Positions 1 to 28,025 of a DNA stretch of 35,831 nt are shown piece by piece. The DNA lies in the IMG/VR virus record IMGVR_UViG_3300045988_034936; one strand, 5' to 3'. Origin of the DNA: a virus. The position numbers and the translations under genes are program-made. The notes below the pieces were generated by a model. The model searched no databases. It was given only the letters and a program-made list of their open reading frames with translations, and was not told the origin of the DNA. The first letter of the stretch is position 1; each line of letters opens with the position of its first letter.

Positions 1-412
1 CGATGCAAGGGTGTCCGGCGATGCAAGGGTGTTCGGCGATGCAAGGGTGTTCGGCAATGCAGAGGTGTCCGGCGATGCAAGGGTGTCCGGCGATGCAAGG
101 GTGTTCGGCGATGCAAGGGTGTTCGGCGATGCATGGGTGTTCGGCGATGCAAGGGTGTCCGGCGATGCAAGGGTGTTCGGCAATGCAGAGGTGTCCGGCA
201 ATGCATGGGTGTTCGGCAATGCAGAGGTGTCCGGCGATGCAAGGGTGTTCGGCAATGCAGAGGTGTCCGGCAATGCATGGGTGTTCGGCAATGCAGAGGT
301 GTCCGGCGATGCAAGGGTGTCCGGCAATGCAGAGGTGTTCGGCGATGCAAGGGTGTTCGGCAATGCAAGGGTGTTCGGCGATGCAAGGGTGTTCGGCGAT
401 GCAGATTATGCA
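1..412 (+). repeat. 18-nt tandem repeat array: 21 full units from 17 to 394, a partial unit at 1-16 and a degenerate unit at 395-412. It continues at 35767..35831.
   Basis: Unit is ggc-(g/a)at-gca-(agg|gag|tgg)-gtg-t(c/t)c. Only about 4 of 18 positions vary and synonymous sites are invariant. A 72-nt higher-order repeat is visible (GNAEVS-GNAWVF-GNAEVS-GDARV[F/S] occurs twice). Confidence 0.95.
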
Positions 413-10375: not shown

Positions 10376-10750
10376 ATGCAGGCTATGAGTAAAATTAAGT
10401 GGAAAAACTTAATAAATAAGCAGCTATCAGCGTTGGGATTGCAGAACGATGCCTACGATAGCACGGTCGAATCCCTTGCAATGATACTTGAACAACGGGA
10501 CAAGACATTTGAGGAGTTCCAGGATAGCGGAGGAAAGTCCGTGATCGAATATACAAATAAAGGCGGATCGACAAACATGACAAAGAATCCGCTCCTTGTC
10601 ATGTGGGACGAACTCAATAAAACGGCGCTTGCGTACTGGCGTGAATTAGGAATGACCCCGAGTTCTTATAAAAAGCTGACCGGAGAAGGCCCGAAAAAAA
10701 AGGAGAAAAAGAAAGGACTGGCGGCAGCGCTTGCATCCATCGAAAGCTAA
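10376..10750 (+). CDS. terS: Terminase small subunit, P27 family
   Basis: Family-typical sequence ...[39 protein letters not shown]..., immediately upstream of and overlapping terL. Confidence 0.8.
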
Positions 10751-12485
10751 GAACTGGGATATCGTCATAAAGTACGCAGAGAGCATAAGAGACGGAACAA
10801 AGGTTGCCTGCGAAGAATTGAAACAGGCGGTTGATAGATTCTTTAGCGATTTGGAAAACACGGATTACTGGATGGACTACAAAGACCCGGAATTTTGCAT
10901 ACAGATTGTAGAGAAGACGCTTTGCAACATGCAGGGCGAAAAAATAGATGGTACACCTCTGCGAGGAAAGCCGTTTGAACTGCAGGACTATCATAAGTTC
11001 TGTATTTACAATCTCGTAGGGTTCAAACTAAAGGGTACTCACAATATCCGGTTTCACGAAGCGCTGATATACATTCCGAGAAAAAATGTCAAGACAACAT
11101 TTGCGGCAGCACTTGCGTGGTCGTTGTCTTTGCTGTATCGCAAGAGTGGTGCAAAAACCTACATAGCGTCAGCGGCGTTGATGCAGTCGCTTGAAAGCTT
11201 TAACTTTTTAAAATATAACGTCCGTCTCATGGGGGAAGATCAGAAGGAAGGCGGATCTGTAAAGATCATAGACAATAACAATGAACACAGCATGGAATCA
11301 TCTTTGGAAGATGGTTCTTTTTTTATACGAGCACTTGCGGCGAACCCGGATGCGCAAGACTCACTTAACTGTAACATTGCAATCGTGGACGAGCTACATG
11401 CCTTGAAGAAACCGAAACAGTACAATCTGTTTAAGGAGGCACAGAAAGCCTATACCAATAAACTGATAATTGGGATATCCACGGCAGGGGATAACGAGCA
11501 GTTATTCCTTGGCCAAAGGCTGAAATATTGTCGGAAGGTTTTGAATGGTACGGTGAAGGATGAGCAGTATTTTATTTTTATGTGTTGTGCACCGGAAGGA
11601 ATCAAAGATGGATCTGTAGACTTTACGGATCCGAAAATACATGAAATGGCTAATCCGGGATACGGAGTAACAATCCGTCCGGAGGAAATCATGAATGATG
11701 CGCTTCAGGCGCAGAACGATCCACAGCAGAGGAAAGACTTTTTTGCGAAGTCGCTGAATGTCTACACAAATGCCATGAAAGCATACTTCGATATAGATGA
11801 ATTTCGGAAAAGCGATCAGAAGTATAGCTGGACGCTGGAGCAGCTGGCTAAACTTCCGATTCAGTGGTATGGAGGCGCTGACCTGTCAAAACTCCATGAT
11901 TTGACAGCGGCCGCTCTTTTCGGAACATACCAGGGCGTTGATATCATTATAACACATGCGTTTTTCCCGGTAGTTTCCGCTCATTTGAAAGCCGAGCAAG
12001 ACAACATACCGCTTTTCGGGTGGGACGAGGACGGCTGGCTGACGCTGTGCAACAGCCCGACCGTAAACCAAGCCGACATAATCCGGTGGTTTTGCGATAT
12101 GCGAGATAAGGGCTTCAAGATTAAGCAGATTGGACATGACCGTAAATTCTGCCGGGAATATTTTATCGGAATGAAACAGGCTCGCTTCAATATTGTTGAC
12201 CAGCCGCAATACTACTACAAAAAATCCGAGGGATTCCGTCATATCGAAAAGAGTGCAAAAGACGGGGATCTCTATTATCTACATTCTGAAGCGTTTGAAT
12301 ATTGCGTAGAGAATGTGGCGGCAGTAGAAAAGACAGATGACATGATTCAATACGAAAAGGTTCAGCCGGAGCATCGAATAGACCTATTTGACGCTTCGGT
12401 TTTTGCGTGTGTGAGGTATTTGGAGAACATGGAACGAAGCAACAAAGCGAACAAATGGTTTGGAAAGGGGCAGAAGGATGAATAA
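10731..12485 (+). CDS. terL: Terminase large subunit
   Basis: 584 aa with Terminase_1-like organisation: an ATPase region with IAIVDELH (Walker B-like) and a C-terminal nuclease region. TTG start, with no in-frame ATG/GTG nearby. Confidence 0.9.
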
Positions 12486-13674: not shown

Positions 13675-14271
13675 GTGGAGCAGAGAGTAATTCAATGTAA
13701 AGAGGCGTTCAAGACTCGTGAAGAGAACGGAAAAAGATATATCGAGGGATACTTCTCGGTTTTTAACCAGCCTTATGAAGTCTTTCCGGGGTGGATTGAG
13801 GAAATTGCACCGGGAGCATTTTCGAGGACATTGCGAGAAGGGAAAGATGTAAAAGTCCTGTGGAATCACAATTCAGATATCGTGCTTGGATCAACGACTA
13901 ACAGGACAGCATCACTAAGAGAAGATGAAGTCGGACTGTATGGAAGCGACGAAATCAACGAGGAAGATCAGGAAGCTAAAAATGGATATGCAAGAGTGGC
14001 CCGTGGAGATGTGAGAGGCTGCTCTTTTGGTTTTGACATCAAATCTATGGAGGAAAGCTGGGACGATGACGGGACATACCGGACAAGGATCACGGACGTT
14101 GATCTCTACGAAGTAAGCCCTTGCACATTCCCGGCCTACGCACAGACCAGCATATCGGCCAGGGCGAAAGACAGCCTGGAAGATGCGAAGAGACGTTTTG
14201 AACAGGCGAAGGAACAGAAAAGAAATGATTGGAGGGATTCTATGAGATCCCGACTGAAAGGAGAAAAGTAA
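13675..14271 (+). CDS. Prohead maturation protease (HK97/U35 family)
   Basis: GYFSVFNQPYEV...VLWNHNSDIVLGST...GDVRGCSFGF pattern, located between portal and capsid genes. GTG start. Confidence 0.85.
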   Translation: MEQRVIQCKEAFKTREENGKRYIEGYFSVFNQPYEVFPGWIEEIAPGAFSRTLREGKDVKVLWNHNSDIVLGSTTNRTASLREDEVGLYGSDEINEEDQEAKNGYARVARGDVRGCSFGFDIKSMEESWDDDGTYRTRITDVDLYEVSPCTFPAYAQTSISARAKDSLEDAKRRFEQAKEQKRNDWRDSMRSRLKGEK

Positions 14272-15986
14272 TGGCATTAAAGCAGATCATGCTTAGAAAG
14301 CAGATTGAAAGAAAGAAAACAGAGCTTGAGGGGCTGCGTGAGAAAGATGCTGATTTCCAGACCAGGGAAGAGGAGCTGGAAAAGGCGATTGATGAAGCGC
14401 AGACAGACGAAGAGCAGAAAACCGTAGAGGATGAAGTAGAAAAATTCGACGGCGAAAAAACTGCTCATGATGAAGCGAAAGCAAAGCTTGAATCAGAAAT
14501 CGGAGATCTTGAGGCAGAGCTCGAGGCTGCCGAAGTTGATCCTCCTGCTCCGGATCAGAGAACTATCAAAACAGAAAAGAAAGTGAGGACGAATATCAGA
14601 ATGAACACAGCAGAAATGAAAATCAGAAGCCTGCCGATGAATGTTAGAGCGTTTGACTCTCTTCCGATGGAAACCAGGGAAGCGATTGTGCAGCGTGACG
14701 ATGTTAAAACATTCCTGGCGCAGTTAAGAAGCATGAAAGGACAGTCCAGGGCAATCCAGGGTGGTGAACTGGAAATTCCGGTAGTATTCCTGGAGCTGAT
14801 CTCCGAAAACATGTACCGGTACAGCAAACTGCTGAATCGTGTGCGTGTAAGAAATGTACCGGGCGAAGCTAGACAGACGATTGCCGGAACTGTACCGGAG
14901 GCAATCTGGACAGAAATGTGCGGTGCTATCAACGAGCTTACTTTCGTGTTTAATCAGGTCACTCTTGATGGGTATAAGGTGGCTGGCTATGTTCCGGTAT
15001 GCAATTCCCTGTTGGAAGATACAGTGAGCAATCTTGACCTTGCCGGATGGATCGTGGAAATGCTGTCTGAATCCATCGGACTTGCAGAGGATAAGGCAAT
15101 TCTGTACGGTAAAGGATCTTCTGCGCACATGCCTCTTGGTATCGTGACTAGGCTGGCGCAGAAAACCAAGCCGTCTGATTATCCGGCAAACGCTCCGGCA
15201 TGGGTAGACCTTCACACCACGAACATCCAGAAAATCAACGGAGACTCTATGACAGGAGCCGAGTTCTGGAGCGCGCTGACTATCGCCGCAGGCAACACCT
15301 TCACGAAATATAACCGTGGAGAAATGTTCTGGGCTATGAACTCTAAGACCTACGCAAAACTGCGCTCTAAGCTTATCACATTTACCGCTACCGGTGATGT
15401 GGTGGCAAACCTGTTTGGAACGCTCCCGATCATCAATGGAGACATTGACATTCTGGAGTTCATTCCGGATGGGGATATCATCGGTGGGTATGGTGATCTG
15501 TATCTGTGGGCTGACAGACGGTCTATGGTGATCGACCAGTCCGAACATGTACAGTTCATCCAGGACAACACCGTATTCCGTGGAAAGGCTCGTGCAGACG
15601 GTGCTCCAATCATCCCGGGTGCATTTGTGGCGATCAACATTAATAACAAGGAAGTTACAACTGTGATGGCCTTTGCGGCTGATACTGCGAATGACGCTGA
15701 TCTGATTGCTCTTGCAGTTGGTTCCGAGACTATGGCTCCATCTTCCTTTGATCCGGATACGCTGACTTATACTATCGCTTCCGCAACACAGGCAAGTGAT
15801 AAGATTGAGGCTACACCGGCACAGGCTGACGCAGAAGTAGCGATCAGCTACAACGGAAAGAATGTCAGAAACGGAGGATCTGTAACATGGCTTGCAGACA
15901 GTGCACCGCATCCGCTGACCGTTACCGTTAAGAAAGGCAATGCTGTAAAAGTGTACACCGTAAATGTGACAAAAGCCGGTGACTAA
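14271..15986 (+). CDS. Major capsid protein (HK97 fold) with an N-terminal coiled-coil delta/scaffold domain and a C-terminal Ig/cadherin-like extension
   Basis: Start trimmed to ATG 14271 (aaaggagaaaag RBS). The N-terminal ~100 aa are charged coiled coil. The core resembles HK97-family MCPs. The last ~110 aa (DLIALAVGSETMAPSSFDPDTLTYTI...VKVYTVNVTKAG) look like a beta-sandwich decoration domain. Confidence 0.85.
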   Translation: MALKQIMLRKQIERKKTELEGLREKDADFQTREEELEKAIDEAQTDEEQKTVEDEVEKFDGEKTAHDEAKAKLESEIGDLEAELEAAEVDPPAPDQRTIKTEKKVRTNIRMNTAEMKIRSLPMNVRAFDSLPMETREAIVQRDDVKTFLAQLRSMKGQSRAIQGGELEIPVVFLELISENMYRYSKLLNRVRVRNVPGEARQTIAGTVPEAIWTEMCGAINELTFVFNQVTLDGYKVAGYVPVCNSLLEDTVSNLDLAGWIVEMLSESIGLAEDKAILYGKGSSAHMPLGIVTRLAQKTKPSDYPANAPAWVDLHTTNIQKINGDSMTGAEFWSALTIAAGNTFTKYNRGEMFWAMNSKTYAKLRSKLITFTATGDVVANLFGTLPIINGDIDILEFIPDGDIIGGYGDLYLWADRRSMVIDQSEHVQFIQDNTVFRGKARADGAPIIPGAFVAININNKEVTTVMAFAADTANDADLIALAVGSETMAPSSFDPDTLTYTIASATQASDKIEATPAQADAEVAISYNGKNVRNGGSVTWLADSAPHPLTVTVKKGNAVKVYTVNVTKAGD

Positions 15987-17439: not shown

Positions 17440-18306
17440 ATGGCTATTAAAGGATTAACAACTCCGGTATTCGGAGATTACGGCTATGACGGGAATAAAG
17501 TAAGCTATTCAAACGGCTTTGTGTGCGGCTCTGCGATTGAGTATAGCGTGGAGTATGATGAACCAGATTCTAACGATCTCTATGGAGATGACCATGTAAT
17601 AGAGTCGGACAACGAAGTCTTCACAACGGGAACACTTACCTTATCAACCTCTGATCTCACGCAGCTTGATTCTAAGAGACTCCTTGGACTTAAGCAGGTG
17701 CAGGTGCAGGTCGGAGAGGAAACTGTAACAGAAAATGTATACGATTCTGATGCAAAGAAGATTCCGAAAGGATTCGGCATTATCGAAACACACCAGATCA
17801 ATAACATCAATAAGTACAGAGCAGTTATCCTTTGCCGGGTAAACATGAATATACCGGGAGAAGCTGCTACCACAAAGGGGGAGACTATTGAATGGCAGAC
17901 CAAGGAGATTGGTGGGAACATCCTGCGAAGCGATGAGCAGAGCGCTAACTACAATCATCCTTGGATGCGAGACGCATGGTTTGACACGCAGCAGGCAGCA
18001 AAAACCTATTTGCAGACCATGCTCAACGCAATCGGATACCTCGAAGTTTCTTCCGTGGCAGGTTCTGCAACGGGTGAAACGGTAATTAGTGTAACCCCTG
18101 CGGCGGCAGCGGGAAACAGCTATGTATATAAGGCACAGAATACCACACCGTCCTATAACGAGGACTTGACATCATGGACAGCACTGACGGTAGATACCGA
18201 CATGGAGATTACTGACGGAACAACTATCTGTGTAGCAGAGGTCACAGCACAGAAAAAGGCGGTAGCCGCTGGAATCGTAGTTGTATCGGCAAATAAGGGA
18301 GAATAA
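17440..18306 (+). CDS. Major tail (tube) protein with a C-terminal Ig-like extension
   Basis: Located immediately before the chaperone and tape measure genes. 288 aa. The C-terminal ~90 aa (LEVSSVAGSATGETVISVTP...) are Ig-like. Confidence 0.7.
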   Translation: MAIKGLTTPVFGDYGYDGNKVSYSNGFVCGSAIEYSVEYDEPDSNDLYGDDHVIESDNEVFTTGTLTLSTSDLTQLDSKRLLGLKQVQVQVGEETVTENVYDSDAKKIPKGFGIIETHQINNINKYRAVILCRVNMNIPGEAATTKGETIEWQTKEIGGNILRSDEQSANYNHPWMRDAWFDTQQAAKTYLQTMLNAIGYLEVSSVAGSATGETVISVTPAAAAGNSYVYKAQNTTPSYNEDLTSWTALTVDTDMEITDGTTICVAEVTAQKKAVAAGIVVVSANKGE

Positions 18307-25299: not shown

Positions 25300-26079
25300 A
25301 TGCCATATATATCTAAAATAGAAGCAAATATCAACGGAGAAAAACAGGACATACCTGTTTTTTCACCCGGTTTTGCCAACGCCGGTTCACACAATAGCAT
25401 CTTCCGAGGACAGAACCTAGGTTCATATGTTACATCTGAACAGTGGACAGCTATTCAAAATGGGACATTCGATGATTTATACATCGGAGATTATTGGGTT
25501 ATTGACGGCATAAATTGGAGGATTGCAGCTTTTGATTATTACTATAACTGTGGCGATTCAGCATTTACAAAACACCATGCAGTAATAGTACCTGACACAT
25601 CGTTGTATTCGCACAATATGAACGACACGAATGTCACTACTGGAGGATATGTGGGATCGAAGATGTACACAGAAGGGTTAGGACAGGCGAAAACACAAAT
25701 ACAAAATACATTCGGAGTATCACATGTCCTGACACATAGATTGCTTTTAACCAACGCAACTACGAACGGGTACGCATCCGGAGGAGCATGGTTTGACAGC
25801 GTAGTAGATCTCATGTGCGAAACAATGGTATATGGATCCATGATAATGTCGCCGATGAATAATGGAACGAACATTCCTTACAACTACCGCATTGAAAAAG
25901 GACAGCTGCCTTTATTCCAAATGGCGCCACAATATACATTCAACCGAAGCGGAACGTATTGGCTAAGAGACGTTGTATCCGCCTCGTATTTCGCGAATGT
26001 GTACGGCAACGGCATTGCGTACGGCGACTCCGCGTCTAATGCTTTTGGCGTTCGCCCGGCTTTCTGTATCGGAATCTAA
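25300..26079 (+). CDS. DGR target protein: putative receptor-binding tail fibre protein with a C-terminal variable region
   Basis: taggaggt RBS. It is the last gene of the tail module. Its C-terminal 27 codons before the last 7 (25978-26058) form the VR copy of the downstream TR. The ...YWLRDVV...FGVRPAF ending is typical of C-type-lectin-fold DGR targets. Confidence 0.85.
   Translation: MPYISKIEANINGEKQDIPVFSPGFANAGSHNSIFRGQNLGSYVTSEQWTAIQNGTFDDLYIGDYWVIDGINWRIAAFDYYYNCGDSAFTKHHAVIVPDTSLYSHNMNDTNVTTGGYVGSKMYTEGLGQAKTQIQNTFGVSHVLTHRLLLTNATTNGYASGGAWFDSVVDLMCETMVYGSMIMSPMNNGTNIPYNYRIEKGQLPLFQMAPQYTFNRSGTYWLRDVVSASYFANVYGNGIAYGDSASNAFGVRPAFCIGI
25978..26058 (+). repeat. DGR variable repeat (VR)
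   Basis: Gap-free 81-nt alignment to 26673-26753 gives 67 identities and 14 mismatches. Every mismatch lies opposite a TR adenine. Confidence 0.9.
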
Positions 26080-26081
26080 AA

Positions 26082-26106
26082 TCTCGCCCTCCTTGTGAGG
26101 GCGAGA
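26082..26106 (+). promoter_or_regulatory. GC-rich hairpin 3' of VR (candidate DGR target-recognition hairpin/cruciform)
   Basis: Perfect 10-bp stem tctcgccctc (26082-26091) / gagggcgaga (26097-26106) with a 5-nt loop cttgt. It lies 24 nt after the VR homology ends and has no following T-run. Confidence 0.6.
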
Positions 26107-26122
26107 GAGGAAAGGGAAATAA

Positions 26123-26650
26123 ATGTCAGTAGTTAAGAGAAAAAGGAAAGAGTCACCATTTGAAGTATTTCACCATCTCACCAAAATGCGACAGAATATT
26201 ACCGATTTATTGTTAAGAGACTTTGGATACAGCAATGAAAAGTTTCAGAAAAAAATAGAGAGGAGGTACGGAGGGAAGAAATTTGAAGAGCTGACCGACG
26301 TACAAAAGAAGGATTATGAGCGGCAAAAGGAGAGGAATGTGGCATTTGATGAATGGTATATTGCCAAAGAACGGGAAACGGTAATAGAATGCATCCATTC
26401 GATCAATGAACATGTATATGTAGCGAATAGCATATATCCAACCTGCCAAGAAGAGCTAACAGAGAGAAGATTACATCAGGACATTGCAATCGGGCAATGT
26501 GCAAGGCTCGCACAGGAACTGCAGTATGCAATAGAAACGTTGCCAGTAAATGTGAACACATATCTTAATATCGCACACGACATCGAAAAGGAAATCGCAC
26601 TTCTGAAGGGGTGGAGAAAATCAGACAATAAGTTCAAGAAGAATTTTTAA
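26123..26650 (+). CDS. avd: Accessory variability determinant (Avd)-like helical protein
   Basis: Located between the target gene and TR/RT. Predicted all-helical, basic. A C-terminal half such as HVYVANSIYP...RRLHQDIAIGQCARLAQELQYAIE...LLKGWRKSD fits the four-helix-bundle Avd family. At 175 aa it is longer than bAvd. Confidence 0.65.
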   Translation: MSVVKRKRKESPFEVFHHLTKMRQNITDLLLRDFGYSNEKFQKKIERRYGGKKFEELTDVQKKDYERQKERNVAFDEWYIAKERETVIECIHSINEHVYVANSIYPTCQEELTERRLHQDIAIGQCARLAQELQYAIETLPVNVNTYLNIAHDIEKEIALLKGWRKSDNKFKKNF

Positions 26651-26672
26651 AGTATTTTGGGGCAAACTCTGT

Positions 26673-26753
26673 ACCGCCTCGAATTTCGCGAATGTGAACA
26701 ACAACGGCAATGCGAACAACAACAACGCGTCTAATGCTAATGGCGTTCGCCCG
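26673..26753 (+). repeat. DGR template repeat (TR)
   Basis: 81 nt in the avd-RT intergenic gap. Read in the VR frame it encodes T A S N F A N V N N N G N A N N N N A S N A N G V R P. It has 12 AAY codons and 25 adenines, and ends in the GC-rich ggcgttcgcccg. Confidence 0.9.
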
Positions 26754-26819
26754 ATTTCGACTGTGCGATTAAAAGACACTCGATCGTTTCGCACAGAAGA
26801 AAGGAGAGATTGTCCCTCT

Positions 26820-28025
26820 ATGGAGAACATAGTAAATACACGGCATGATGCCGGTGGTTACGACCAGTCCGGCTATAAACATGCCATTTATGACGGAAAT
26901 GTACTATATGAAGCATTCCTTAAGGCAAAGAAAGGAAGTGATTGGAAAGGAAGTGTACAGCGATTTGAAATGGACTATCTTTTCGGACTGGCAAAAATAC
27001 AGAAAGAACTACAGGAAGAAACATACCGATTTAAAGAAGGGAGTTCATTTATTATTAGGGAAAGAGGGAAGGTTAGAAAGATAACGGGAGAGAAGATAGA
27101 TGATAGAATCGTGAAACATGCGCTTTGCGACGAGGTGATTAATCCCGCAATCAAGAAATACCTAATACATGACAATGGAGCAAGCCAGGTTGGAAAAGGA
27201 ATCGAATTTACCCGTCGAAGACTTGAACAGCATTTACATCAGTATTATAGGAGAAATGGGACAAATAAAGGATATATACTAATTATGGATTTTTCAAAAT
27301 ACTACGATAATATCAGACACGATGTTGTTAGAGATATGATGAAAAAGTATATAGATAACCCTTATGCTTTACGACTCATTGATAAGGTGCTTGAAAGTGA
27401 AAGGGTGGATGTGTCCTACATGACAGAGGAAGAGTACGGTTCCTGCATGGAAGATGTCTTTGATTCATTGAAATACTTCGACATTCAATCGGAAAAACTC
27501 ACGGGGAAAAAGTACATGGAAAAACATATGAATATCGGAAATCAGGTTGCACAAAGCGTTGGGATCAGCTACAGAATTCCGTTTGATAACTTTTTTAAAA
27601 TTGTAAAAGGATTTGATTCATATGCAGCATATATGGATGACAGCTATGCGATACATGAAAGCAAGGAATTTCTTGAAGAAGCGCTGGGAGAGTCGATAGA
27701 TGTAGCAAAGAGCATTGGTATAACTGTAAATTTAAAAAAGACTCGAATATGTAAGTTATCTGACATGTGGAGGTTTCTACAAATACAGTATTCTTTAACG
27801 GACACAGGAAGAGTCATACACAAAATTAATCCAAAGAGACTGACAGTTATGCGACGTAAAATGAAGAAACTATCTGGATGTTTAACGGAGAAAGAATTTT
27901 CCAACCTTTATCATTCATGGTTCAATAGCTATTCAAGATATATGAGCAAGAAGCAACGCGAAAACATGGATATACTTTATGAAGATATAAAGACAAAGCA
28001 CTACAAAAGGAGGAGAACATGTTAG
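26820..28025 (+). CDS. DGR-type reverse transcriptase
   Basis: Start trimmed to ATG 26820 (aaggagag RBS at 26801-26808). RT motifs present: ILIMDFSKYYDNIRHD (motif A type D-x-x-K-Y-x-D-x-I-x-H), IGNQVAQ (DGR-like [ILV]GxxxSQ variant of QGxxxSP), YAAYMDDSYAI (YMDD). Confidence 0.9.
   Translation: MENIVNTRHDAGGYDQSGYKHAIYDGNVLYEAFLKAKKGSDWKGSVQRFEMDYLFGLAKIQKELQEETYRFKEGSSFIIRERGKVRKITGEKIDDRIVKHALCDEVINPAIKKYLIHDNGASQVGKGIEFTRRRLEQHLHQYYRRNGTNKGYILIMDFSKYYDNIRHDVVRDMMKKYIDNPYALRLIDKVLESERVDVSYMTEEEYGSCMEDVFDSLKYFDIQSEKLTGKKYMEKHMNIGNQVAQSVGISYRIPFDNFFKIVKGFDSYAAYMDDSYAIHESKEFLEEALGESIDVAKSIGITVNLKKTRICKLSDMWRFLQIQYSLTDTGRVIHKINPKRLTVMRRKMKKLSGCLTEKEFSNLYHSWFNSYSRYMSKKQRENMDILYEDIKTKHYKRRRTC

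Follow-up and report, generated by a model that had tools for sequence, protein, structure and literature searches.

A complete and very probably recently active diversity-generating retroelement in a prophage of a Claveliimonas bilis-like Lachnospiraceae

Diversity-generating retroelements (DGRs), which are abundant in gut phages, are the only natural systems known to carry out targeted protein hypermutation in prokaryotes. The present analysis concerns a locus of this kind at positions 25300-28025 of a 35,831-nt virus sequence (IMG/VR record IMGVR_UViG_3300045988_034936; this whole stretch is called the window below). A preliminary description, made from the letters alone, had interpreted the locus as a complete DGR embedded in a tail-fibre module. 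This interpretation is supported by the adenine-only mismatches between the two repeats, by a reverse transcriptase (RT) of the DGR type and by the natural variants of the locus. The locus is, with high confidence, a complete and recently active DGR carried by a temperate siphovirus-type prophage of a Claveliimonas bilis-like member of the Lachnospiraceae.

In the DGR carried by Bordetella phage BPP-1 (mtd-avd-TR-brt; PDB 8ub7 series), the target gene is followed by the gene of an accessory protein, the template repeat (TR) and the RT gene. Mutagenesis is confined to adenines, and the variable repeat (VR) forms the 3' end of the target gene. The VR is followed by a set of DNA elements consisting of (GC)14, a 21-bp spacer and a hairpin, in which the structure of the stem matters, its sequence does not, and the loop is constrained (PMC3240598). 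In the ribonucleoprotein (RNP) structure obtained by cryo-electron microscopy (cryo-EM), the order of the RNA elements is a duplex that brackets the TR, a stem-loop after the TR and a distal stem-loop that binds the RT (bioRxiv 10.1101/2023.10.23.563531). The window shares with BPP-1 the gene order, the adenine-only mutagenesis and the position of the VR. It differs in that its target is a 259-aa DUF6273 protein and not Mtd, and in that its TR has 80 nt instead of 134 nt.

DGRs with DUF6273 targets have already been published for gut Clostridia phages (PMC11792537, PMC10743442). The Roseburia phage Shimadzu (LR596903.1), like the window, is a temperate Lachnospiraceae phage in which the genes (orf22-24: tail fibre, Avd and reverse transcriptase) have the same order and lie between the tail and lysis modules. 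Its target also ends in DUF6273, and its Avd is homologous to the accessory protein of the window. Unlike the window, Shimadzu is myovirus-like, with baseplate J and P2_I genes, its RT is only 31% identical and has no insertion between motifs A and B, and its Avd, of 136 aa, has no insertion either. Two proteins are reportedly diversified in Shimadzu (PMC11792537). The window, by contrast, has one VR, and a scan of both strands of the window found no second target or VR. The closest cultured phage is the Acutalibacter phage Fontainebleau (ON453893.1), whose RT is 42% identical and has the same insertion; the RTs of these two phages are the closest. Fontainebleau also has a long Avd-like homologue of 184 aa, a DUF6273-ended target and a GC-rich hairpin after the VR with the loop CTTGC. 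It differs in its host family, in the annotation of its accessory and target proteins as hypothetical, and in having no nucleotide-level similarity to the window. DUF6273-type DGR targets are also present in nd4/nd12 (tgt2, 234-294 aa) and in the Faecalibacterium prophages Lelie, Roos and Pioen, which belong to a different phage lineage and host and, unlike the window, often have a second target (tentaclin or Hoc-like). The question of whether this lineage had been described, which the preliminary description left to a database search, can be answered to the extent that the same cassette type has been published for gut Clostridia phages. Related gut phages are already known to have such a system, of which the DGR of the window is a well-preserved case. 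At the nucleotide level, a megablast search of the cassette against 50,697 deposited phages gave no match, and neither did an exact search of IMG/VR with 64 nt of the TR.

The window encodes TerL, a portal protein, an HK97-family capsid protein, a tail module, a holin, a GH25-ChW endolysin and an integrase, and it is a temperate siphovirus-type prophage. The phage host is Claveliimonas bilis or a close relative. The 90% cluster of the target protein contains a chromosomal Claveliimonas bilis copy (BDZ80532.1); the prophage around this copy shows the same gene order. The cassette is placed between the tail genes and the holin and lysin genes. Its four co-oriented elements, the target, the accessory gene, the repeat and the RT gene, are found on the plus strand at the coordinates first assigned to them (Table 1). 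This order is identical in all 37 related loci as well as in Shimadzu and Fontainebleau.

Table 1. Features of the DGR locus and its flank (window coordinates)
Feature	Position	Strand	Remarks
DGR target gene, 259-aa distal tail protein	25300-26079	+	C-terminal DUF6273 domain carries the VR
VR	25979-26058	+	Codons 227-253; 12 diversified codons matching the AAY codons of the TR
GC-rich box GGCGTTCGCCCG, similar to the initiation of mutagenic homing (IMH) element	26047-26058	+	3' end of the VR; identical 12-mer in the TR at 26742-26753
DNA hairpin/cruciform	26082-26106	+	10-bp GC-rich stem, loop CTTGT; starts 23 nt after the GC-rich box
Divergent Avd-like accessory protein, 175 aa	26123-26650	+	All-helical, isoelectric point (pI) 8.9, ~45-residue insertion relative to short Avds
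Long-range duplex, 5' strand	26659-26670	+	Paired to 26805-26816, with the TR between the two strands; counterpart in BPP-1 is the 'cPRT Stop' duplex
TR	26674-26753	+	In the VR frame (T)ASNFANVNNNGNANNNNASNANGVRP; 12 AAY codons
TTTC (26755-26758):GAAA (26799-26802) pairing	26755-26802	+	Candidate template:primer duplex; encloses P1
Stem-loop P1	26761-26768 with 26789-26796	+	Directly after the TR; position of the BPP-1 Avd-binding stem-loop
Long-range duplex, 3' strand	26805-26816	+	Between the RT Shine-Dalgarno sequence (26801-26806) and the start codon (26820)
Short stem-loop CTATG-GAGAA-CATAG	26818-26832	+	Contains the RT start codon; followed by invariant GTAAAT
DGR RT, 401 aa	26820-28025	+	~30-40-residue insertion between motifs A and B
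RNA hairpin P2	26844-26883	+	RT codons 9-22; 13 pairs in two helices; position of the BPP-1 bRT-binding stem-loop
ORF after the RT gene, 203 aa	28019-28630		Overlaps the RT stop codon; acidic, pI 4.3

The alignment of 25978-26058 with 26673-26753 spans 81 nt without gaps at an offset of 695 nt, with identity at 67 of the 81 positions. Each of the 14 mismatches coincides with an adenine of the TR (8 A>T, 5 A>G and 1 A>C), none of the 56 non-A positions differs, and 11 adenines are unchanged. These counts are exactly those of the preliminary description, and the pairwise alignment that it proposed as a check reveals no mismatch at a non-A position of the TR. The probability that all 14 mismatches would fall on the 25 adenines by chance is 2.4e-9 (hypergeometric), and in the reading frame of the target all 14 affect the first or second position of a codon. 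A repeat finder reports 25979-26058 and 26674-26753 as the largest direct repeat of the region. Ser227, whose codon accounts for the first of the mismatches (25978/26673), is invariant in 26 near-identical relatives, in which the other 12 A-templated codons are hypervariable. Because Ser227 is invariant, and the repeat finder also starts one base later, the functional repeat probably begins at 25979/26674. The mismatch in codon 227 thus probably falls outside it, and the working VR and TR are probably 80 nt long, with 13 mismatches and with 12 AAY codons that hold the 24 adenines. Translated in the frame of the VR, the TR gives T-A-S-N-F-A-N-V-N-N-N-G-N-A-N-N-N-N-A-S-N-A-N-G-V-R-P, and a TR with 12 AAY codons is a classic DGR design. 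Randomization of these 12 codons would allow as many as 15^12 (~1.3e14) target variants.

The relatives of the window make it possible to follow this process in nature. The protein comparison included 26 full-length proteins from the target cluster of the window and a sister cluster, the representative of each being 96% identical to the window protein. Several of the 26 are identical to the window target over residues 1-226. In 12 of the 13 A-templated codons there are 7-12 residue types each, all of them encodable by NNY, while the non-A columns of the VR show singletons only. The preliminary description had suggested that sequencing reads be mapped to the VR; natural variants were used in their place, and the hypervariation is found only in the A-templated codons. 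The same pattern is seen in the DNA, where the VR/TR mismatches are at adenines in 14 of 14 cases in the window, 16 of 16 in the related locus L012, 11 of 11 in L013, 12 of 12 in L014 and 17 of 17 in L015. L013 is 99.3% identical to the window over 4701 nt. Fourteen of its 31 differences are on the 25 A-templated sites (P=4e-26), and there are no others between 25028 and 28627. In L015, 18 of 35 differences are on A-templated sites (P=1e-35). In phages of 99.3% identity, the only differences in the cassette are A-templated bases of the VR, which means that homing has taken place since their very recent divergence. The TR itself is conserved: L013 and L014 share it exactly, L001, L012 and L015 have it in near-identical form, and the few non-A variants that it has acquired (AGT and CGTCCG in L012, GGC and AGC in L015) are mirrored in the cognate VR. 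Because these variants reappear in the VR, the two repeats have changed in concert within the lineage, and the natural variants show, although indirectly, directional transfer from the TR to the VR, i.e. mutagenic retrohoming.

The tips of tail fibers are classic hotspots of both diversifying selection and allele recombination, and it can be asked whether one of these created the VR diversity next to an RT that belongs to an unrelated retroelement, such as a group II intron, a retron or an Abi (abortive infection)-type element. The changes, however, occur only where a non-coding copy 695 nt away has an adenine, and where that copy has changed at non-A bases the VR shows the change as well. Such an A-templated, TR-mirrored pattern is predicted neither by selection nor by recombination, and this explanation can therefore be regarded as effectively refuted. 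The part of it that concerns the RT would find some encouragement in the NCBIfam models, among which the best match of the RT is a group II maturase. The score, however, is 57 bits against a cutoff of 300 bits, the PADLOC models of defence RTs (retron and defence-associated RT, DRT) give at most 65 bits, and an Rfam search of the whole window finds nothing at gathering thresholds and no group II intron or retron RNA.

The RT start codon is preceded by an AAGGAG Shine-Dalgarno sequence, and the gene calls of the relatives likewise give 401 aa. The protein matches Pfam RVT_1 and, at 185 bits, the phage RT family PHROG 1423. Its sole sequence match in the PDB is the Bordetella DGR RT (bRT, 8ub7), although this match is marginal (E 1e-6) and bRT, with 328 residues, is shorter and has no insertion between motifs A and B. 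The motifs first read from the translation, DFSKYYDNIRH as motif A, IGNQVAQ and YMDD, are all present. IGNQVAQ corresponds to I-G-x-x-x-A-Q, in which the DGR signature keeps its I, G and Q and alanine replaces serine at the penultimate position (IGxxxSQ in BPP-1). According to the alignments, the equivalents of bRT residues F66, R74, I76, I181, G182 and Q187 are conserved in the window RT; in the cryo-EM structure these residues surround the template base and the incoming nucleotide (bioRxiv 10.1101/2023.10.23.563531). The insertion between motifs A and B is shared by the members of the family and by Fontainebleau, and is absent from Shimadzu, whose RT, from a phage annotated with a DGR, is nevertheless a homologue. 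These comparisons place the RT with the DGR RTs and not with the group II, retron or Abi RTs, a grouping that the preliminary description had said would speak against a DGR.

The accessory protein belongs to a family of ~1,700 clusters, and 23 of the 24 members sampled match PHROG 3206, 'Avd protein of DGR' (best E 8.5e-7). A profile comparison by hhalign relates it to the annotated Avd of Shimadzu with a probability of 97% (E 1e-10), the ~45-residue insertion belonging to the window protein, and to the 184-aa hypothetical protein of Fontainebleau with a probability of 99.7%. The AlphaFold2 model is all-helical, with a predicted local distance difference test score (pLDDT) of 82.5. Its best match in the viral fold library BFVD is an 'Avd-like protein' (template modelling score, TM, 0.75), and in a local Foldseek match against the PDB its C-terminal half superposes at 2.0 Å on 2rld, a member of the intervening sequence (IVS)-protein family. 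The profiles and the model thus point to a divergent Avd outside Pfam's Avd family; the earlier designation of this protein as Avd holds in the broad sense of PHROG 3206, hhalign and the fold, and fails for the Pfam family. In the window the avd-like ORF (open reading frame) stops 22 nt before the TR. In many relatives (211-aa homologues P0041, P0046, P0067 and others) no stop codon precedes the TR and the ORF runs on through the repeat (…NFANVNNNGNANNNNASNSNGVRPDF), so that the TR is nominally coding there.

The target protein has a weak match to a tail-fibre PHROG (E 8e-5) and homologues in more than 8000 clusters, and its profile has no match among the PDB sequences. Its 3' end carries the VR, as had been proposed for the tail-module coding sequence of the preliminary description. 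According to published work, DUF6273 is a C-type-lectin-like scaffold of DGRs whose C-terminal end holds the VR (PMC10743442, PMC11792537). By analogy, the VR of the window would be the C-terminus of such a domain and would contribute its ligand-binding face. The 259-aa protein is probably the host-recognition protein of the phage, a role that is likewise suggested by BPP-1.

The target side of the locus has the cis elements of a DGR, namely a GC-rich, IMH-like end of the VR and a hairpin downstream of it. The spacing resembles that in BPP-1, where a GC-rich hairpin also follows the GC-rich box at ~21-23 bp. In the window the homology stops right after the box, where the VR continues with GCTTTC and the TR with ATTTC; across the family the sequences are ..CCN GCTTTC in the VR and ..CCN GATTTC in the TR. 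The clade of the window is thus one base short after the GC-rich box of its TR (26753-26759, CCG|ATTTC instead of the consensus CCN|GATTTC). The two repeats are thus out of register beyond the box, but diversification continues in this clade, so that no homology seems to be needed 3' of the box. The hairpin has a centroid fold of -12.3 kcal/mol (z -2.3). A hairpin is present after the VR in 24 of 26 distinct relatives, including Fontainebleau, and starts at a median of 24 nt after the box, while shuffled sequences reach a stem of 7 bp only 2.8% of the time. The stems have many sequences and the loops are conserved and CTTGT-like. This 5-nt loop differs from that of BPP-1, which has 4 nt and the consensus GRNA (PMC3240598).

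The RNA elements around the TR follow the same order as those of the Bordetella RNP: a duplex between upstream and spacer sequences, a stem-loop that directly follows the TR, and a distal one whose tetraloop is of the UNCG type. As only 66 nt separate the TR from the RT gene, these elements overlap the ribosome-binding site and the coding region of the RT. The long-range duplex is paired in 97.5% of the alignment cells and has compensatory double changes in 7 of its 12 pairs. In P1, double changes are found in all 8 pairs, the covariation is 0.435 compared to 0.195 in shuffles, and there are at least 10 different arm sequences. The P1 alignment was made by a small covariance model; RNAalifold missed P1 because MAFFT had put this stem out of register. 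P2, which is capped by a UACG tetraloop at 26859-26862, is 97.2% paired, with double changes in 12 of 13 pairs and a covariation of 0.769, compared to 0.207 in shuffles and 0.06-0.15 in controls slid along the sequence. The short stem-loop at the RT start codon appears to be optional, since it can be read from the alignments only in the window clade, L010 and L028. The helices of the RNA thus covary, and comparison of the sequences supports a plan with the element order of the Bordetella cryo-EM RNP. By analogy with BPP-1, P1 may bind the Avd-like protein, the TTTC:GAAA pairing may serve in priming, the long-range duplex may terminate cDNA synthesis, and P2 may bind the RT.

Some features of the hairpin and of these helices would also suit ordinary structures for transcription termination or translation control that are not DGR cis elements. 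The hairpin stands directly after the stop codon of the target, a scan of the minus strand calls it terminator-like, and the region from the RT Shine-Dalgarno sequence to the ATG is shared with both the long-range duplex and the short stem-loop. There are, however, no genes on the minus strand here. On the plus strand no terminator is called at 26082-26106, where there is no T-tract, and none of the 26 relatives has a coding-strand T-tract after the hairpin, whose CTTGT loop is conserved while the stems vary. The helices are arranged in the order of the BPP-1 RNP (bioRxiv 10.1101/2023.10.23.563531), and P2 covaries inside the coding sequence at the cost of amino-acid conservation. Control and DGR roles are also not mutually exclusive. 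It is therefore unlikely that these structures have ordinary functions alone, and a role in the DGR is preferred.

Not all copies of the family are as well preserved as that of the window. In a census of 33 loci with both repeats, TR adenines account for 466 mismatches and other positions for 70, and these 70 are concentrated in a few decayed or misaligned copies. In L001, the Claveliimonas bilis AP027743.1 prophage (10679-11507), the VR and TR differ at 9 non-A positions, mostly in codon position 3 and mostly synonymous, and a G>A change breaks P1 (TCGCACAG to TCACACAG), while the ORFs are intact. L021 (Moryella indoligenes DSM 19659) retains a match over 114 RT residues and L037 has 61 avd residues left; no TR was found in either, and the two are probably DGR remnants in bacterial genomes. 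Such copies make it conceivable that the window, too, contains a relic that no longer homes and whose VR/TR differences are frozen from past activity. The window, however, has identical bases at all non-A positions of the repeats, intact ORFs and RNA helices and the catalytic motifs of the RT, and phages 99.3% identical to it differ at no sites of the cassette other than A-templated VR bases. The relic explanation is thus very improbable, and recent activity of the window copy is strongly preferred.

Several observations weigh against this reading of the locus or against parts of it. The activity of the window copy itself is deduced from variation between the genomes of its relatives, and L001, the copy from a cultured isolate of Claveliimonas bilis, appears to have stopped homing, so that not every copy of the lineage is active. 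Neither the sequence of the 175-aa protein nor its profile finds a match in Pfam, NCBIfam or the PDB sequences. The search with an Avd/23S-rRNA-IVS profile that had been proposed for it was run with the Pfam Avd family (PF05635) and gave no match; none of 24 members of the accessory family matches this model even at E<=10. The Foldseek comparison of its model with the PDB gave no global match at E<=1e-3. The match of Pfam DUF6273 to target residues 203-257 is barely at the threshold (23.6 bits, with a cutoff of 23.5), and the AlphaFold2 model of the target, built from a 28-sequence alignment, has a pLDDT of only 42.7. Concerning the RNA, the statistics of P1 come from a model-fitted alignment that leans towards structure, and the TTTC:GAAA pairing is invariant across the family and thus uninformative for covariation. 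The conservation of the GAAAGGAG box has another explanation, because this box doubles as the RT Shine-Dalgarno sequence.

By combining these observations with what has been described for BPP-1, it is possible to propose how the cassette would work. A transcript would run from the 3' end of the avd-like gene across the TR and into the RT gene, of which it would include the first ~65 nt; promoter-like sites for such an RNA are no commoner in the sequence than in shuffles. The RNA would fold into the long-range duplex that brackets the TR, the stem-loop after the TR and the UACG-capped hairpin within the RT coding region, and would then join the RT and the Avd-like protein. The RT would copy the TR into cDNA, faithfully except opposite adenines. 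At the 3' end of the gene for the 259-aa protein, the cDNA would take the place of the VR, with the GC-rich box and the DNA hairpin downstream of it as guides. The resulting variants of the DUF6273 ligand-binding face would presumably retune the recognition of host receptors.

Compared with the known picture, the window adds modestly: the co-occurring insertions in the Avd-like protein and the RT, the CTTGT loop, and an RNA plan laid over the translation start of the RT. The helical ~45-residue insertion of the Avd-like protein and the insertion of the RT are found in the same lineages, and neither is present in Shimadzu or BPP-1. Because of this co-occurrence, the two insertions may form a new contact between Avd and RT or between protein and RNA. 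At the RT start, the duplex lies over the spacer between the Shine-Dalgarno sequence and the ATG, the short stem-loop contains the ATG, and P2 occupies codons 9-22. It is tentatively suggested, as a possibility that is somewhat doubtful at present, that the family of the window and Fontainebleau represent a distinct variant of the DGR RNP, in which the RNA elements on the RT start enable autoregulation. If this were true, template function and RT translation would be mutually exclusive for each transcript, and mutagenesis would have a built-in autoregulation.

The accessory-protein family is present in isolates of the Lachnospiraceae and other Clostridia (Oribacterium, Moryella, Dorea and one Eubacteriaceae isolate) and in many metagenome-assembled genomes (MAGs). 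Six loci (L022, L026, L027, L030, L035 and L036) are in MAG bins labelled Bacteroides, Bacteroidaceae, Spirochaetales, Akkermansia, Parabacteroides and Oxalobacter. These are more likely to be mis-binned phage contigs than to indicate true hosts, but L035 and L036, the most divergent (avd 47% identical), might reflect real hosts. Two IMG/VR loci have a second, unrelated pair of 108-nt repeats ~3-4 kb downstream of the RT gene (8128-8235/8331-8438 in L011 and 4954-5061/5157-5264 in L008). Their mismatches are only at adenines of the second copy (23 of 23 and 19 of 19, respectively), which suggests a second TR/VR pair or a second DGR.

The ORF that follows the RT gene in the window has no Pfam, PHROG, NCBIfam or PADLOC match. 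It was considered as a member of the cassette and rejected, because it is kept in the window's own clade only and is absent after the RT gene in more distant relatives. At the left end of the contig, window positions 1-405 are a tandem array of ~22 copies of the 18-nt unit CGATGCAAGGGTGTTCGG (87% match), with a higher-order period of 72 nt. The array overlaps ORFs 3-533 and 11-652 and could be either replication-origin iterons or a coding repeat. The major capsid protein (14229-15986) has a C-terminal Cadherin-like β-sandwich domain and the putative tail tube protein (17440-18306) a C-terminal SbsC-type Ig-like domain. These domains are surface decorations of the kind linked to the adhesion of gut phages.

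The locus of the window leaves the general picture of DGRs unchanged, and is a clean natural example of them. The lineage offers a cultured lysogenic host species, Claveliimonas bilis, and many near-isogenic variants that differ only at A-templated sites. The alignment of the family provides covariation support from outside Bordetella for the RNA plan seen in the cryo-EM structure of BPP-1. With its 80-nt TR, 12 AAY codons and single-domain scaffold of 259 aa, the system is a compact candidate for engineering. It would also be a reasonable model, from a phage of a Gram-positive anaerobe, for the generality of the BPP-1 mechanism, for the roles of the Avd and RT insertions and for a coupling between mutagenesis and the translation of the RT.

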